64,000 nucleotides of DNA from the IMG/VR virus record IMGVR_UViG_3300045988_151747; one strand, 5' to 3'. Below the pieces are notes generated by a model that was not told where the DNA came from, made no database searches, and saw only the letters and a list, made by a program, of their open reading frames with translations. Shown here piece after piece: positions 3,849 to 32,402 of the stretch. The position numbers were made by a program, and so were the translations under genes. The DNA is from a virus. Each line of letters begins with the position of its first letter. Position 1 is the first letter of the stretch.

Positions 3849-5509
3849 TAGTACGAATGTCTTTTTATTGCGTTAATTGTTTCAGTTATTCCGCCATACA
3901 GGGGGTTATCGGAAACTTCCATTTCTTCCTTAACCTCCACTTCCTCATTTGCAGCAAGACACATAAGTGCCGCACTGTCCACCATATCGTCAAAATACCC
4001 TTCCGTTTTTTCGCATACCATAAAGGAGCCGTTGAAATACTTCTGGCAGTTTTTCATCTGTTCCTCGAATTTGGAATACTCGGAAGTTCCTCTCACCACT
4101 TTATTAGCCGGAACTATAAGTCTGCGTGTCTTAATGTCAGAGATGAAATTATACCACATGTCTGATTTGCTCTGTGCGGTGAAAGTATATGGAGTTATAT
4201 CCACGTATTCGCCACAAGCATACATAAGCCGGTCAACAACGGGTTTTCCCACACCAGTATAATCCGCGTATATTTTGGCGATATTAAATTCGGCTATATA
4301 ATCAAGAAGTATATGATGCTGTTCCTCATAATCAGCACCACCAAGACACGCCCAGCATAATACCTGCTTATATGGATTCTTAAACGGTTCATCCAAGTCT
4401 TTCCACGACTTACCTATGGTAAGCACTGTTTCAGCAGGAGATTTACCGATATCCAAACCAGCCACAACAAAATCGGTAACATTGGGAACCTGAAATCCCA
4501 ACTTGCGGTTTATGATTCCATTAAATTCCTTATCCGTAAGAAGCATACCGCTTTCAATATCCCAAATAAGGGCGTAGGCAAGTTTGAACGCTTGTGATTC
4601 CTCACCCCAACGTTCACGCTTGCGATAAATATCAGCTTCGTAATTCAAATGGAATCTCTTTCCGTCCTTTTCATACTGTTCCCGTCTGCTGGCGATAATC
4701 TTCTTATAATCATATTCGTAATGATGCCGTACCCGTGGGTCAAGGCACTTCCTGTCCAGTTCACGGTTATGCTTTATTTCATAGTAGAAATGGTTCTTGG
4801 TCATACCTGTTGTACCTACCTTTATAAGAGTACCTGCGGTTGAGGAAAGCATAGGTTCGATAGACTTGCTGACAATAAGGTCGTCAACATCCTGCGCTTC
4901 TTCGACAATAACCAAATCATACGTCTTTGATTCAATCTTGGATTGCTTACTGGCAACCTGTCCGGCAAGAAAAGAACCGTTTGACAATTCAAGGCGTGCC
5001 ACACTTTCTAGCCATACGTCAATATCCGGGTCTGTAAGAACCATATCCGCATTTGCAGACCTCAGTCGGGTCATTGAACGTGAATAGGTAGTGACAACCT
5101 GGTCTGACTGGGGGGCGAAAAGCCCTACACGGAATCCGGTTTTGAACTGTTCCAAGTCGGGAATGATTGAAGCCAGTGCCGGAAGAATAACACATAACGT
5201 ATCAATGACAAAAGCCATAACCTCGGATTTACCCGACTGACGGGAAAGAAGCACTGTCTTTACGTCACCCGAAAAAGTTATCACGGAGTATATGATTCCG
5301 TATGCTATATCTTCCTGATAGGAATACAGGGAAATACCAGTAAGAACTTTGCCGAACTCCATAATCTTGGCGGTTACATCGTGGGCATCAAACTCCACGG
5401 TTTTACCTACCAGTTCCTCGGTATGTATTTCGGAAACGCTCTTACCAGTAGCCTCGAACACGTATCCCTGTTCCTTTAGTTCTTTTTTCTTCTTACTACG
5501 TACAGGCAT
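3848..5509 (-). CDS. terminase large subunit (T4 gp17-like)
   Basis: Walker A-like LLSRQSGKSE (compare T4 gp17 SRQLGKT), Walker B-like YDLVIVEEAQ, and a C-terminal RNase H-like nuclease region (VVAGLDIGK). 553 aa. Confidence 0.9.
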   Translation of the reverse strand: MPVRSKKKKELKEQGYVFEATGKSVSEIHTEELVGKTVEFDAHDVTAKIMEFGKVLTGISLYSYQEDIAYGIIYSVITFSGDVKTVLLSRQSGKSEVMAFVIDTLCVILPALASIIPDLEQFKTGFRVGLFAPQSDQVVTTYSRSMTRLRSANADMVLTDPDIDVWLESVARLELSNGSFLAGQVASKQSKIESKTYDLVIVEEAQDVDDLIVSKSIEPMLSSTAGTLIKVGTTGMTKNHFYYEIKHNRELDRKCLDPRVRHHYEYDYKKIIASRREQYEKDGKRFHLNYEADIYRKRERWGEESQAFKLAYALIWDIESGMLLTDKEFNGIINRKLGFQVPNVTDFVVAGLDIGKSPAETVLTIGKSWKDLDEPFKNPYKQVLCWACLGGADYEEQHHILLDYIAEFNIAKIYADYTGVGKPVVDRLMYACGEYVDITPYTFTAQSKSDMWYNFISDIKTRRLIVPANKVVRGTSEYSKFEEQMKNCQKYFNGSFMVCEKTEGYFDDMVDSAALMCLAANEEVEVKEEMEVSDNPLYGGITETINAIKRHSY

Positions 5510-10985: not shown

Positions 10986-10998
10986 AGACCGTTCGTTT

Positions 10999-11086
10999 TA
11001 TTTCGATACACAAAAGTAGTTATTTTTTTCGGAATAACAAAATAGTAAGATACTTTTTTCAGGGTAACTATATTAATATTTGTTAA
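10999..11086 (-). repeat. 88-bp direct repeat, copy A (promoter cassette)
   Basis: About 93 percent identical to 13685-13772. The first 46 nt are identical (TATTTCGATACACAAAAGTAGTTATTTTTTTCGGAATAACAAAATA). Confidence 0.9.
11011..11041 (-). promoter_or_regulatory. Bacteroidota-type promoter (TTTG-N19-TACTTTTG) inside repeat copy A
   Basis: Minus strand: TTTG at 11041-11038, TACTTTTG at 11018-11011. It ends 26 nt upstream of the ATG at 10985. Confidence 0.65.
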
Positions 11087-13649: not shown

Positions 13650-13684
13650 CTTTCTTGTCTTTTAGTGGTGAATACTACGTTTAT

Positions 13685-13772
13685 TATTTCGATACACAAA
13701 AGTAGTTATTTTTTTCGGAATAACAAAATAATAAGATATTTTTTTCAAAGTAACTATATTAATATTTGTTAA
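13685..13772 (-). repeat. 88-bp direct repeat, copy B (promoter cassette)
   Basis: See copy A at 10999-11086. Confidence 0.9.
13697..13727 (-). promoter_or_regulatory. Bacteroidota-type promoter (TTTG-N19-TACTTTTG) inside repeat copy B
   Basis: Minus strand: TTTG at 13727-13724, TACTTTTG at 13704-13697. Confidence 0.65.
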
Positions 13773-27255: not shown

Positions 27256-28014
27256 TCATTGCCGTTTTCTTTTACGTGAAACTTTTTCGGTTTCCTTTTC
27301 CTCCACTATTTCCTCCACATCAACTATATCCTCACGTGAGGACGGTTTTGCCGGAATGGATATGGTGGACGGTTGTTCTATTTCCTTGGGAGCACCTCCG
27401 AATATTTTGGATAAGATACCACCGCCGGCAGAAGTGGCAGCACCCCCAGCAGCACCTTTAGCCTCGATATTTACCGATATTCGTTCTCTTCCCAGTTCGG
27501 CTTTAGCAGCCATCAAATCATTAAGGCGGTCAATCTCTCCGGAAAGTCCGGCATCAGCGACACCACCGTCAACCTTTTCAATAACAGAACCTCTTCTTAC
27601 TCTTTCATACTGGATGTCAATAAGGAAGTCCATCATATCGGCAGGTGTGGCAGGTTTCTTGTCACCCCAGTCTATACCACAGGCAAAATCCTTTCTGTAC
27701 ATAGGACACTTGTCATAAATGTAGCAGGAATTGCAGTTCATTCCTACGCCTATAATCTCATTTACAGATACCTTGTCACGGGTATTGACAATAAACTTGT
27801 CAAAGTCCTCACACCATATATCCATAGGGAGAGTTTTTATCCGCTTAAGATAATACTCCCGGCAGTCAAGAAGATTATCCTCGGTTTTTCTACAAGTCAT
27901 GCAGTCGGGATAACCCCCTTTTTCAAAGAAAGGACACAAATGTCTTTTCAACAAATCAGCATCCTCCGTACCACGAACAGCCTCGATTCTTTTTTCAATT
28001 GTATCAGTTGCCAT
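27256..28014 (-). CDS. cysteine-rich hypothetical protein inside the deazaguanine gene cluster
   Basis: 252 aa. Contains CPFFEKGGYPDCMTCRKTEDNLLDC and CNSCYIYDKCPMYRKDFAC, then a Gly/Ala-rich and acidic tail. Confidence 0.5.
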   Translation of the reverse strand: MATDTIEKRIEAVRGTEDADLLKRHLCPFFEKGGYPDCMTCRKTEDNLLDCREYYLKRIKTLPMDIWCEDFDKFIVNTRDKVSVNEIIGVGMNCNSCYIYDKCPMYRKDFACGIDWGDKKPATPADMMDFLIDIQYERVRRGSVIEKVDGGVADAGLSGEIDRLNDLMAAKAELGRERISVNIEAKGAAGGAATSAGGGILSKIFGGAPKEIEQPSTISIPAKPSSREDIVDVEEIVEEKETEKVSRKRKRQ

Positions 28015-28015
28015 A

Positions 28016-28945
28016 CTATCTTCTTGTTTTATCGTAATACAAAACAGGTTTATTCTTTAGCTTGCAGTGAGCGATTTTAAGAAATTCCCTGCGGAATCCC
28101 AACCACCCTAGCAGGTTCATGTTATTTATAGGAATACGCTTTTCACCACGTATATCTTCCATACTCAGCCCGGCATCCTCATATTTGATACGGTTAGCCT
28201 TTCTTCTGTACTTATGTTTGTAGTCAATGGTGCTGAAATTTTTCCCGTCATAGTTATAAGTAGTACCAAAACGAGTACCTCCTAACCATGTTACAGAATC
28301 CACGGAAAAGAAAGGGAATCTTTGCAACAGGTTCATTTCGGTCCAAGCAAACCCATGTACTTTTGTTCCATAGGCATTTGTAATGCGATATATCTCGGCA
28401 GCATTATCTTTCATAGTCTGGTTACATCCTACGTAGTTATGTTGCTGGCAATACTCTTTAAGCCGTAACAGACCAGTCTTGTCACCCTGTGCGTCCTGAT
28501 GCACCACATATACTACGTTTATATCCTTTTCGAGCGGTTTGAAATATTTTTCATTCCATCGGTCAACAACTTCCCTACCTACAATCATGTCCAAGTCAAG
28601 GTTTGCAGCGACAAATATAAACTTTTTATTTTCATGCAACCAAGCCACGTATTCCTCCAAATAAGGAAGCCAGTATTCTTCGGTAGTCATTTTATGCTCC
28701 ACTTTTTTACCCATAAAGGAGAAAGCTCCGGAGTCCGTCATAAATATACCACCTTCCTTATGTTGTTTCTCCAATTGCGGTGGGTAAAATTTGAGTGACT
28801 TTCTCAAGTAGAAGTAAGAAACCAACGTGTCCTTTATACCGAAATCCCGTAATGTGGTATAATCACCTACGGATGATGCGGAAAAGAACAGAGTGGCTTT
28901 TCTTTTACTCAACTCATTACCTTCTTCAAGAACTCTGCGCTCCAT
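28016..28945 (-). CDS. dpdA: DpdA-like DNA guanine transglycosylase (TGT superfamily)
   Basis: FMTDSGAFSF matches the catalytic DSGGF/DSGAF motif of the TGT/DpdA family. 309 aa. It overlaps queC by 37 nt. Confidence 0.75.
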   Translation of the reverse strand: MERRVLEEGNELSKRKATLFFSASSVGDYTTLRDFGIKDTLVSYFYLRKSLKFYPPQLEKQHKEGGIFMTDSGAFSFMGKKVEHKMTTEEYWLPYLEEYVAWLHENKKFIFVAANLDLDMIVGREVVDRWNEKYFKPLEKDINVVYVVHQDAQGDKTGLLRLKEYCQQHNYVGCNQTMKDNAAEIYRITNAYGTKVHGFAWTEMNLLQRFPFFSVDSVTWLGGTRFGTTYNYDGKNFSTIDYKHKYRRKANRIKYEDAGLSMEDIRGEKRIPINNMNLLGWLGFRREFLKIAHCKLKNKPVLYYDKTRR

Positions 28946-29535
28946 TTTTCCCTACGTAATGAAGTTATTACTTTCTGGCATTTGTCACATACTCCGCAAT
29001 TGCGCTTTTCGTTTTCCCCATCGGGGCAAAAAGTAAGATGCGAGTAATCTAGCGTACTTAGTTTCTTAGCCAGCTTTACAAACGGCACATTCATTGCCGG
29101 AGCAAGAAGTTTAATCTTATAAGATTTGGCGAACAAATATCTTGCCTCTTCATAGAAAAGATAACCACCGTCAAACCATGAACTTCCCAAATCCACAGCA
29201 CCGTATGCCACTTTCTTTATTCCCATAGCAGTAGCATAATTACCTGCCATAGAAAGAAACAAAAGATTCCGGCAGGGAATATCCACATTATGCACGTTAC
29301 CATCCTTATCACGAATAGGCTCAAACTGTAAGGGGTAAGTTACTTTGCGGAAACTCTTGACGGAATCTTTATAGACTTCAATATAATAACCTATTGCGGA
29401 CAGTTCTTTTTCAATATTGTCCTGCCCATAGTCAACATAGAACAAATGAATATCATACGATTTGGAGAGTTTATCCAGATTATACAGGCTTTCAAAACCT
29501 CCAGTAAACAGCAAAACTACTTTTTCTCTTTTCAT
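28909..29535 (-). CDS. queC: 7-cyano-7-deazaguanine synthase QueC
   Basis: N-terminal PP-loop variant VVLLFTGGFES (canonical SGGxDS) and C-terminal zinc motif C-x10-CGVCDKC. 208 aa. Confidence 0.8.
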   Translation of the reverse strand: MKREKVVLLFTGGFESLYNLDKLSKSYDIHLFYVDYGQDNIEKELSAIGYYIEVYKDSVKSFRKVTYPLQFEPIRDKDGNVHNVDIPCRNLLFLSMAGNYATAMGIKKVAYGAVDLGSSWFDGGYLFYEEARYLFAKSYKIKLLAPAMNVPFVKLAKKLSTLDYSHLTFCPDGENEKRNCGVCDKCQKVITSLRREKWSAEFLKKVMS

Positions 29536-29554
29536 AATCTTATTAAATAGAAAA

Positions 29555-29578
29555 AGCCCACTATGTAAATAGCAGGCT
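29555..29578 (-). terminator. rho-independent terminator (strand-specific)
   Basis: 10-bp stem that is complete only in the minus-strand RNA (two G-U pairs), with a 4-nt loop and a following TTTTTCTATTT. It ends 20 nt upstream of the queC ATG. Confidence 0.65.
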
Positions 29579-29601
29579 TTTTGTGAATACTTTTGGAGGG
29601 C

Positions 29602-29739
29602 TTAACGTCTACGTCCACCACGAGTAGAAGTTCTACGTCCACCGCCACCACGGGTAGCAGTTCTACGAGTAGCACCTCCACCGCCTCTACGAGCAGTACG
29701 GGCAGCGCCACCACCGCCTCCACCTCTAGTTGTTCCCAT
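29602..29739 (-). CDS. 45-aa Arg/Gly-rich peptide
   Basis: Hand-translated MGTTRGGGGGGAARTARRGGGGATRRTATRGGGGRRTSTRGGRRR. It is built from imperfect tandem DNA repeats and has its own terminator. The two ORF-track entries here are other frames of the same repeat. Confidence 0.5.
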   Translation of the reverse strand: MGTTRGGGGGGAARTARRGGGGATRRTATRGGGGRRTSTRGGRRR

Positions 29740-29851
29740 AATAGTGAAAATTTAAAAGTCCAGCAGTATTCATTTATAAAGCGATTAGCTGTAAAAACCG
29801 CTTGTGCAAATGTACTAAAAACTTTTATTCTTCCAAATAAAACCTGCGAAA

Positions 29852-30145
29852 TTATATACTTAAAAAGAATATTTTAAGTCCAATAGCAGTAGTATTCAAG
29901 GACGCATCCTGAAAAAACGGCTGGACACCTATCAATATTCCCTTTTTAGCAAAAAATTTATTGCTTATAATCGCACCCTTAATAGCTTGGTTAAGCGCAC
30001 CCGCACCAATAACTCTTATTATAATATCATTATCGGGATTGCTTTGGTAGGTAGAATAAATACTACCAGCCAATTTCTTGGCATCAGTAGATGAACTGCA
30101 TCTTAGGGTAGTGACTTTTTCTTGTACTTCATTAATTGCTTCCAT
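29852..30145 (-). CDS. SpoVS-like protein
   Basis: VIGAGALNQAIKGAIISNKFFAKKGILIGVQPFF...TTAIGLKIF aligns by eye with Bacillus SpoVS AIGAGALNQAVKAVAIARGFVAPSGVDLICIPAF...RTAIKLIV. Confidence 0.75.
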   Translation of the reverse strand: MEAINEVQEKVTTLRCSSSTDAKKLAGSIYSTYQSNPDNDIIIRVIGAGALNQAIKGAIISNKFFAKKGILIGVQPFFQDASLNTTAIGLKIFFLSI

Positions 30146-30195: not shown

Positions 30196-30603
30196 TTATT
30201 CGTCTACTTCCACAGATTCAAGTTGTATTTTTGAAATCTTATGTAAATCTTCCGGACGTATAACAAGCAGGTATCCTTTACCACCTTTTTGGCGCAAAGC
30301 GATAATGGGAATTTTTTTCTCCACTTTAGCCTTGTTCCTAATATCCTCGAACAAAGTCCATATAGCGGATTTTCCCCTAACCTTACATTCAATGTACAGT
30401 TTGGGATGAAGCGTGTCGCTGTTAGTATTATGACCGCTATTACTTCCGGACAATGGAACTCTCTTTGTACCGAAATGTTTGGCAACTTCTCTTTCAAATG
30501 ACTTCCAACAGCTCTTTGACGTTGGTTTCTTAACCACTACATTATTCTTACGGATAACTTCCTTCTTAGGTCGTAATCTCCTACCGATACTTCTTTTAGG
30601 CAT
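30196..30603 (-). CDS. PD-(D/E)xK nuclease-fold protein (Holliday-junction-resolvase-like)
   Basis: FEREVAKHFG...PLSGSNSGHNTNSDT...YIECKVR gives an E...D...ExK arrangement. The N-terminus is basic. Confidence 0.45.
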   Translation of the reverse strand: MPKRSIGRRLRPKKEVIRKNNVVVKKPTSKSCWKSFEREVAKHFGTKRVPLSGSNSGHNTNSDTLHPKLYIECKVRGKSAIWTLFEDIRNKAKVEKKIPIIALRQKGGKGYLLVIRPEDLHKISKIQLESVEVDE

Positions 30604-32219: not shown

Positions 32220-32296
32220 TGGTGATTCCAAAGTGGCTCGAACACTTGACCCACGCCTTAAAAGGGCGTTGCTCTATCCAACTGAGCTATGGAACC
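32220..32296 (-). tRNA. tRNA-Lys (anticodon UUU) with encoded CCA
   Basis: The manual cloverleaf folds cleanly. Acceptor GGTTCCA / TGGAATC; D arm GCTC-AGTTGGATA-GAGC; anticodon arm ACGCC-CTTTTAA-GGCGT; T arm AAGTG-TTCGAGC-CACTT; ending ACCA. Confidence 0.9.
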
Positions 32297-32371: not shown

Positions 32372-32402
32372 CAAAGATAACAAATATTTTTTAGTTTCCA
32401 AA
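32372..32402 (-). promoter_or_regulatory. Bacteroidota-type promoter (TTTG-N19-TATCTTTG) driving the tRNA
   Basis: Minus strand: TTTG at 32402-32399, TATCTTTG at 32379-32372. It lies between the vWA gene stop and the tRNA. Confidence 0.55.

Follow-up and report, generated by a model that had tools for sequence, protein, structure and literature searches.

A candidate family of short polycationic peptides encoded between the SpoVS-like and 7-deazaguanine genes of a Bacteroides-phage clade

Introduction

In the current view, the DNA that tailed phages package is essentially naked, with ions and polyamines neutralizing its charge. Short Arg-rich peptides that neutralize and condense double-stranded DNA are known as adenovirus mu/pVII, baculovirus P6.9, and the sperm protamines; phage T4 encodes basic proteins (IPI–IPIII) that are packaged and injected with its DNA, and the H1-like condensing proteins of bacteria bind DNA by charge. 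Alleles of one of the latter, Hc2, vary in size by the number of their basic repeat units (PMC2848022). In eukaryotes, the Alba proteins of Trypanosoma (ALBA3/4), Plasmodium, and plants carry C-terminal RGG/RG tails that aid nucleic-acid binding (PMC11621453, PMC3141063), and RGG motifs are among the commonest partners of the Alba domain (PMC11621453). Here we analyse a 64,000-nucleotide (nt) stretch of the IMG/VR virus record IMGVR_UViG_3300045988_151747, hereafter the window, and within it a small gene, predicted to encode a 45-amino-acid (aa) polycation, that lies between a gene for a SpoVS-like protein of the Alba superfamily and a set of 7-deazaguanine DNA-modification genes.

The gene is very probably real and translated. 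We give a probability slightly better than even (roughly 55%) to the reading that its product is abundant and disordered and, as a polycation, binds nucleic acid through its charge, with phage DNA as its most likely target. A literature search turned up nothing describing such a gene in tailed phages, in the related phage BS162P1, in connection with phage SpoVS, or among protamine- or H1-like proteins of phages; subscription journals lay outside its scope, so that novelty is not proven.

Results

A Polycationic Reading Frame

The translation of the open reading frame (ORF) agrees exactly with that of an earlier sequence-only reading of the window, which had drawn attention to it. The composition of the peptide (G17 R13 T8 A5 S1 M1) corresponds to a mass of 4400.8 Da and a net charge of about +12.5. 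The most frequent residue is Gly (38%), and Arg makes up 29% (13 of 45 residues, not the 14 first counted). The peptide had been described as consisting of Arg, Gly, Thr, and Ala only, to which one Ser has to be added; the absence of acidic and hydrophobic residues after the initial Met stands. A polycation filter (Arg+Lys 20% or more, no more than one acidic residue, and hydrophobic residues not above 10%) was passed by this ORF alone among the 898 of 20 aa or longer in the window, and this uniqueness places it beyond chance. AlphaFold2 assigns it no secondary structure (pTM 0.15), and the peptide is accordingly modelled as intrinsically disordered. Tandem repeats exist, although they are imperfect and looser than had been implied: two 30-nt copies (29605–29634 and 29635–29664) are 83% identical, looser copies are spaced 27, 30, and 36 nt, and Tandem Repeats Finder reports just one 9-nt array of 2.1 copies. 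Perfect 30-nt tandem units are seen in sister alleles (three copies in L004, for instance; L numbers denote the loci compared). The two ORFs that overlap the locus in other frames, 29532–29723 (-) and 29593–29877 (+), are artefacts, as had been recognized, and are the sole ORFs listed there at the default 60-aa cut-off.

Related loci were collected with a profile of SpoVS-like proteins run against viral and metagenome contigs, and two further lineages were added from contigs with QueC-like homologues. A polycationic ORF of 31–57 aa starts 107–194 nt downstream of every SpoVS-like gene that is at least 47% identical, and none was found at any locus where the SpoVS-like gene is at most 41% identical. 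The result is a set of about 18 lineages, all from one Bacteroides-phage clade with genomes of about 80–100 kb, in which small ORFs unrelated in sequence and alike in composition occupy the same place, always between the SpoVS/Alba-fold gene and the QueC/DpdA genes of 7-deazaguanine DNA modification. These ORFs are rich in Gly, Ala, Arg, Lys, and Thr, have almost no acidic or hydrophobic residues, and have an isoelectric point (pI) near 12. The related phage contigs yielded 35 raw alleles; two were start-codon artefacts, leaving 33 distinct alleles, all with lengths that are multiples of three (31–57 aa), with a pI of about 12, and with a single acidic residue in the whole set. When all are pooled, the residues are G 27, A 22, R 21, T 12, K 7, S 5, and P 4%.

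Between lineages the peptides cannot be aligned (for example, MARTARTAATGRGRGRAAAAPARGGRRSGGRGRAAATASKS, MAKKLTTKAPVKKAPAKAAAKKTAPAKGGKGKAAAAGSKS, and MAKSRKPTPKPKPGPGKKPNKPKPKPTPGGKSGNS); Arg is exchanged with Lys, and Gly with Ala or Pro, while charge is kept. Because unalignable lineages interchange these residues in this way, the constraint lies on the charge and flexibility of the protein and not on the nucleotide sequence. What selection preserves in these comparisons is charge, along with residues that are small and flexible (Gly, Ala, Thr, Ser, Pro), rather than sequence. Lys-rich variants (AAA/AAG-rich in the DNA) occur in lineages sister to that of the window. Many of the unalignable peptides begin with MA(R/K) and end with -(A/T/G)SKS (e.g., L047, L050, L051, L055, L056, and L062), unlike those of the window lineage, which begin with MGT and end with GGRR(R). 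Such conserved termini may carry a function beyond composition, in processing, targeting, or modification.

The closest cultured relative, Bacteroides phage BS162P1 (OP172706), has an annotated 36-aa coding sequence (CDS), MAKRGAKTTRAAARKTAAGRGGRGGRKAAAKGSTSA, at the same position, followed by a terminator. A further 15 IMG/VR contigs have a SpoVS-like protein 96%–100% identical to that of the window; the frame is kept in all of them, with peptides of 33–54 aa that have gained or lost whole units. Across 17 close alleles the peptide frame is the only one open in all: the +1 sense frame has stops in L009–L013, and BS162P1 interrupts the antisense frame (the 94-aa artefact). Indels concentrate in the gene, a hotspot with 0.86–2.4 gap events per 100 nt versus 0–0.13 in the 1-kb flanks, and every one of them is in frame. 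The gain and loss of repeat units alters the predicted peptide length quickly and always in frame. The sequence-only reading had named conservation of the frame, rather than just of the repeat, as the check to make in relatives, with a kept repeat and a broken frame as the refuting outcome. The relatives show the reverse of that outcome: the repeat sequence and the choice of Arg or Lys vary, and the open polycationic frame and its start position are always kept.

Composition at the codon level is also that of a gene. GC content at codon positions 1/2/3 is 0.65/0.96/0.15 in a genome of 40% GC, and Arg is encoded only by CGT and AGA, the two codons used by the major capsid gene. Gene callers usually skip the ORF. 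In an exact-sequence lookup against a collection of 15 billion proteins, nine of ten peptide sequences were missing; the one present, the BS162P1 form, was on 355 contigs.

Promoter, Leader Hairpin, and Terminator

The Bacteroides sigma-A consensus consists of TTTG at -33 and TAnnTTTG at -7 (PMC7366714), and a promoter of this type precedes the peptide gene (Table 1). Searching the window for TTTG-N17-21-TAnnTTTG gives 13 matches, every one on the minus strand, compared to 2.4 expected, and 16 of 18 lineages have the exact TAnnTTTG box at the corresponding position. A hairpin begins 5 nt past the -7 box, so the mRNA probably starts at or close to it. Window and BS162P1 have leaders that are 100% identical, although their proteins differ.

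Covariation was assessed on a trimmed hand alignment (A4) of 16 lineages. In this alignment 94.5% of cells pair, and compensatory changes are seen in four of the seven pairs (A-U to G-C; G-C to U-A, A-U, or U.G; C-G to U-A; and U-A to A-U). None of 500 shuffles reached the observed values, and slid controls were 17%–54% paired, a comparison that somewhat favours the hairpin, since the structure was derived from the same sequences. A conserved G.U pair points to an RNA rather than a DNA element. The single-stranded tail that follows contains an AATAC that is invariant over the 16 lineages. A covariance model of hairpin plus tail has one strong match in the window, at 29763–29802 (-) (59 bits, E 1e-9; the next scores 18 bits). 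The same model found nothing in 99 loci around distant SpoVS genes, and a scan of bacterial genomes gave at least 120 chance matches in unrelated taxa, none of those listed combining the AATAC tail with a basic ORF. RNAalifold predicted no structure on an automatic MAFFT alignment of the leader, so that the hairpin is testable just on the trimmed one. At the gathering threshold Rfam reports only a tRNA-Lys in the whole window, and at permissive E-values only chance matches far below threshold in 29500–29900. A competing pairing from RNAfold, of the 5' stem strand with a downstream ACUGCU, was rejected by eye, because in L055, L223, and L225 the compensatory changes follow the partner strand of the hairpin and not the tail. 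The 5' stem-loop is likely a stabilizer of the mRNA or the site of a regulator.

The peptide gene lacks a Shine-Dalgarno sequence, which is usual in Bacteroidetes, and the A residues at -3 and -6 of its start match the reported initiation context (PMC7366714). An out-of-frame upstream ORF (uORF) of 15 codons begins within the leader tail, where AAATG supplies an ATG (AAATGAATAC); other lineages have AAAAG or AAAAT. It is present only in the window's own lineage, and, lacking its ATG elsewhere, it is not conserved and probably incidental.

Downstream of the stop codon is an intrinsic terminator, whose hairpin (14 pairs, with the flanking A/U pairs counted, a loop of 4 nt, -15.8 kcal/mol, z-score -3.3) is fully paired in the minus-strand RNA only, owing to its two G.U pairs. 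A hairpin of -8 kcal/mol or better with at least four T lies 33–59 nt past the stop codon in 14 of 18 lineages; of the other four, one has a borderline hairpin (-7.9), two lack a clean T-run, and one is a truncated contig. The window terminator ends 16 nt ahead of the ATG of the QueC-like gene at 29535, and no TAnnTTTG promoter box lies in between, so that read-through of the terminator probably supplies the downstream Dpd genes. As predicted from these features, promoter, hairpin, tail, ORF, and terminator form a self-contained transcription unit. Both the minus-strand-specific terminator with its U-tract and the description "stand-alone gene" thus survive from the sequence-only reading, the latter strengthened by a dedicated promoter that had gone unnoticed. 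Together, the consensus promoter, 5' stem-loop, preferred codons, and tight terminator suggest an abundant product with a stoichiometric rather than a catalytic role.

Table 1. Predicted features of the peptide locus and the surrounding gene order, from high to low coordinates
Feature	Position	Strand	Description
Tail and baseplate genes	high-coordinate end of the order	-	
Replication module	after the tail and baseplate genes	-	helicases, DnaB, primase, DNA polymerase, UvsX-like recombinase
MoxR/vWA pair, tRNA-Lys, Cas4-like exonuclease, resolvase	after the replication module, before the SpoVS-like gene	-	
SpoVS-like gene	29852..30145	-	97 aa; Pfam PF04232, E 2.3e-12, 46.9 bits vs cut-off 24
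Bacteroides sigma-A type promoter	29807..29837	-	-33 TTTG 29837-29834; -7 box TACATTTG 29814-29807; 19-nt spacer
5'-leader hairpin	29780..29802	-	AGCGGUU-UUUACAGCU-AAUCGCU; 23 nt; 7 bp including one G.U
Single-stranded leader tail	29763..29779	-	UUUAUAAAUGAAUACUGC; family consensus AAAAKAAUAC(U)GC
Out-of-frame uORF	29726..29773	-	15 codons, MNTAGLLNFHYYGNN; begins inside the leader tail, overlaps the main start codon
Polycationic-peptide CDS	29602..29739	-	ATG to TAA (stop 29604-29602); product MGTTRGGGGGGAARTARRGGGGATRRTATRGGGGRRTSTRGGRRR, 45 aa
Intrinsic terminator	29551..29582	-	hairpin with two G.U pairs, then U-tract
7-deazaguanine genes	directly after the peptide gene	-	QueC, DpdA, QueE, FolE
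Terminase, portal, and major capsid genes	after the 7-deazaguanine genes	-	

Genomic Context

All genes of the window are on the minus strand, and the peptide gene sits inside a recombination and DNA-metabolism module. The neighbours named by the sequence-only reading are as stated, with SpoVS upstream and QueC-like and DpdA-like genes downstream. The SpoVS-like gene has a TAnnTTTG box of its own (TATATTTG, about 30191–30184). Its assignment to the SpoVS/Alba superfamily is supported by a PF04232 score above the cut-off and by fold: a profile of its homologues matches PDB 2EH1/2EK0 (2EH1 at E 3e-7), and its AlphaFold2 model (pLDDT 89) has Thermus SpoVS 2EH1 as top Foldseek match (TM 0.86), with further matches to archaeal Alba/Sso10b (probability about 1) and Rpp20/25. 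These matches fit the published placement of SpoVS in the nucleic-acid-binding Alba superfamily (PMC2732212, PMC11621453). The second-best Foldseek match, 9a7h_B, is B. subtilis SpoVS in a cross-linking integrative model of a YunD-SpoVS complex, which hints that cellular SpoVS has a protein partner.

The gene order exonuclease-resolvase-SpoVS-peptide-QueC is kept throughout the clade, even in its most distant member (L066). We propose to define the peptide family by an ORF of 31–57 aa in which Arg+Lys reach 20% or more, acidic residues number one at most, and hydrophobic residues are all but absent; by a start 107–194 nt after a SpoVS-like gene, with a QueC-like gene next; and by a leader with a TAnnTTTG box, the 7-bp hairpin AGCGGUU...AAUCGCU, and an AAUAC tail. 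The window ORF and those of all of the approximately 18 lineages examined have this form and placement, and the window leader (29763–29814) contains all three elements. Among 78 SpoVS-like homologues, none carried a basic tail as a fusion; longer homologues were considered as fusions and rejected, being just N-terminal start-site extensions.

Several other observations concern the neighbourhood. The DpdA-like function is split in the window (27256–28945, -), with a 309-aa ORF that corresponds to positions 8–260 of phrog_887 (queuine tRNA-ribosyltransferase) and a following 252-aa ORF that corresponds to positions 365–495. The same pair (308/309 aa and 248/252 aa) occurs in L299 and L301, and the split is therefore conserved and not a sequencing error. 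The QueC-like gene and the 309-aa ORF overlap by 37 nt. Upstream of SpoVS, the resolvase-like gene encodes 135 aa in the window (30196–30603), and its BS162P1 (L001) counterpart (4447–5451) encodes 334 aa annotated as an I-HmuI-like HNH endonuclease; since the C-terminal third of the latter aligns with the window protein, an N-terminal HNH module has apparently been inserted or fused in BS162P1.

The 13 exact promoters of the window (2202, 6322, 11011, 13697, 16292, 25555, 29807, 32372, 51498, 54508, 56544, 58247, and 62830, all on the minus strand) lie upstream of structural and DNA-metabolism genes alike, and the phage seems, from these motifs, to rely on the host sigma-A polymerase throughout. 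The two copies of a duplicated 89-nt intergenic segment (10998–11086 and 13684–13772; 96% identity, 2686 nt apart) each contain an identical Bacteroides-type promoter, TTTGTTATTCCGAAAAAAATAACTACTTTTG (-), and one promoter cassette apparently serves both transcription units. The tRNA-Lys (anticodon TTT; 32220–32296, -) has a consensus promoter of its own at 32372–32402 (-), about 75 nt upstream.

Discussion

Proposed Function

A peptide with a charge of +12 to +13 that is otherwise made of small residues would be expected to bind non-specifically to nucleic-acid phosphates, neutralizing or condensing the nucleic acid, and we consider it probable that the peptide acts by binding nucleic acid in some form. 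The target would most likely be phage DNA, during replication, modification, or packaging. DNA is favoured over RNA because of the DNA-metabolism context and the H1-tail-like AKKA and PKPK variants, and we put forward phage DNA as the target tentatively. The peptide may work together with the adjacent Alba-fold protein, as eukaryotic Alba proteins bear RGG tails in cis.

Several observations weigh against this interpretation. The peptide shows no homology to any characterized DNA- or RNA-binding family: searches of the window peptide against Pfam, PHROGs, and NCBIfam place it in no family, and phmmer against 5.8 billion clusters returns nothing at E <= 0.01. The gene lies in the DNA-metabolism and not the head module, so that a role in a virion core is not favoured. 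The promoter type is identical in all 13 units of the window and gives no clue to timing. The adjacency of SpoVS and peptide is confounded by synteny; with the whole block conserved clade-wide, it reflects shared ancestry as much as functional coupling. We found no genome that separates the two genes, and in a search from QueC-like homologues (four found) both informative contigs again had the order SpoVS-peptide-QueC. Finally, within-lineage substitutions are few and mostly non-synonymous, and do not show the signature of classical purifying selection at the sequence level. This pattern fits a constraint on composition only, and adds no independent support for coding; the case for a translated gene is built on the frame, the indels, codon-position GC, and composition.

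A further-reaching scheme, which we regard as doubtful, is that the peptide and the SpoVS/Alba-fold protein make up a minimal phage "chromatin." A folded Alba-like dimer would coat the phage DNA, and the separate RGG/H1-tail-like polycation would neutralize and bridge it, possibly by complex coacervation, so that the 7-deazaguanine-modified genome is organized, protected, or pre-condensed while it is replicated and packaged. The 5' hairpin specific to this gene would be a feedback site that titrates free peptide. If true, this would give tailed phages their first protamine- or H1-like system of genome condensation.

Alternative Explanations

An RNA target is the alternative that survives best, although it seems unlikely. 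The peptide would be an RGG or arginine-rich-motif binder, alone or with the SpoVS-like protein, serving as an RNA chaperone, translational modulator, or RNA-condensate former, and by analogy with lambda N on boxB it might autoregulate through its own leader hairpin. The window lineage and several others are RGG- or RG-rich, Alba-superfamily proteins are often RNA binders with RGG tails alongside in eukaryotes (PMC11621453, PMC3141063), and a gene-specific covarying hairpin with a conserved loop in the gene's own mRNA is more like a protein-binding site than a mere stabilizer. However, many lineages are Lys/Ala/Pro-rich (AKKA or PKPK) with few or no RGG, like the tail of histone H1, and such sequences are typical DNA binders; the gene sits among those for DNA recombination and DNA modification; and the RGG triplets of the window peptide are about 10–13 residues apart, wider than strict di-/tri-RGG spacing.

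More improbable is an action against the host, in which the polycation would compact or shut off the nucleoid or ribosomes, or would be active on membranes or lipopolysaccharide, aiding lysis or blocking defence. The net charge and the predicted abundance and disorder of the product are compatible with this, as is the fast change in length and sequence between near-identical phages, which resembles that of genes in host-phage conflict. The variation is explained equally well by repeat slippage under a composition-only constraint, though, and a hydrophobic or amphipathic segment, a signal sequence, and a lysis-cassette context are all lacking. No PADLOC/anti-defence leads turned up, the padloc library itself not having been searched.

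It is very unlikely that the ORF is a translated leader peptide that controls transcription into the QueC/DpdA operon by attenuation at the terminator. Probable dependence of that operon on read-through, a possible pairing of AAGCCC at the stop codon with GGGCUU in the 3' arm of the terminator, and a weak Rfam Thr_leader match over the terminator (21 bits versus a gathering score of 55, far sub-threshold) speak for it. Yet 31–57 codons is long for a leader peptide, no residue of the peptide relates to 7-deazaguanine synthesis, and Arg/Lys and Gly/Ala swap between lineages, so that no single aminoacyl-tRNA could be sensed. The possible 6-bp antiterminator is far weaker than the approximately 14-bp terminator and, as examined by eye, is lacking in BS162P1, and an attenuator does not need a conserved polycationic composition.

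Least probable of all is a small RNA or GC-rich repeat in which the ORF is an artefact of stop-poor composition: three frames are open over the window repeat, the leader holds a structured RNA element, and the ORF is skipped by gene callers and mostly missing from protein collections, but the other frames are interrupted in close relatives, the nucleotide sequence varies between lineages while amino-acid composition and start and stop positions are kept, the GC3/GC2 contrast and preferred Arg codons are coding signatures, and no Rfam family matches.

Significance

If the charge-based binding of phage DNA is correct, a conserved gene of apparently high expression for a protamine- or H1-tail-like polycation beside Alba-fold and DNA-hypermodification genes would add a protein layer of genome neutralization or organization to what is assumed for tailed phages. 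We regard the predicted peptide gene and its leader element as solid and previously overlooked. They point to a blind spot, as the family is invisible to homology searches and mostly passed over by gene callers. They also offer a clear example of selection at the level of composition rather than sequence, with rapid in-frame turnover of repeats, and the covarying gene-specific hairpin adds a new candidate cis-regulatory RNA to the Bacteroidetes phages, whose post-transcriptional control is little understood.

Comparison with Known Systems

The likeness of the peptide to protamines and RGG-type proteins, suggested when the gene was first noticed, is one that we infer from composition. Protamines are short basic proteins in which Arg makes up roughly half or more of the residues; the window peptide has 29% Arg, and the pooled family 21% Arg and 7% Lys. 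In di-/tri-RGG motifs the RGG units are 0–4 residues apart, whereas those of the window peptide begin at residues 5, 18, 30, and 40, with spacers of 7–10 residues. GRGGRGGR in the BS162P1 peptide fits the definition, which is thus satisfied only in some lineages. The window peptide does not match HC2 (PF07382). Lys-rich members of the family have faint compositional matches to HC2 (best in L223, 14.5 bits versus a cut-off of 40, E 0.04) and to NCBIfam Rv3852_fam, far below the cut-offs. Attenuation leaders are enriched in codons for the amino acid whose pathway they control, and their terminator and antiterminator structures exclude each other. Among them the peptide would be out of place in that its composition shifts between Arg and Lys and between Gly and Ala, and in that the downstream operon makes 7-deazaguanine and no amino acid.

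The bacterial H1-like proteins (Chlamydia Hc2/HctB, AlgP, Rv3852, and the AKKA/PAKKA repeats of the HupB tail) are likewise low-complexity polycations of Lys/Arg with Ala/Gly/Pro, and, as in Hc2, the phage alleles vary by repeats, from 33 to 54 aa within one lineage. Hc2, however, has 165–237 aa, and the bacterial proteins are cellular and under developmental regulation, whereas the phage proteins have 31–57 aa and are stand-alone. The resemblance to eukaryotic Alba-RGG proteins lies in the combination of an Alba-superfamily fold (the SpoVS-like neighbour) with a Gly/Arg-rich, disordered, basic segment (the peptide); unlike them, the phage has two separate genes with their own promoters, and the neighbour belongs to the SpoVS branch and not to Alba proper.

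With lambda/P22 N-boxB and HIV Tat/Rev the locus shares a short, Arg-rich, predictedly disordered peptide and a small conserved RNA hairpin, here in its own leader. There is no sequence similarity to these peptides, the leader hairpin with its 7-bp stem and 8–10-nt loop is unlike boxB, and the putative pairing of peptide and hairpin is by analogy. T4 IPI–IPIII are folded proteins of 8–20 kDa, encoded with the head genes, with an N-terminal capsid-targeting sequence that is cut by the prohead protease; the peptide is of low complexity, has no targeting signal and no Glu cleavage motif, and is encoded in the DNA-metabolism module. Protamines and P6.9 are far richer in Arg than the peptide, with which they share no homology, and eukaryotic core-protein viruses build their particles around a condensed core, whereas the procapsid of tailed phages is filled by pumping in naked DNA. 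On these sequence comparisons no membership in a known family can be claimed, and the closest functional analogues would be the H1-like proteins, the eukaryotic Alba-RGG proteins, and the viral core proteins.

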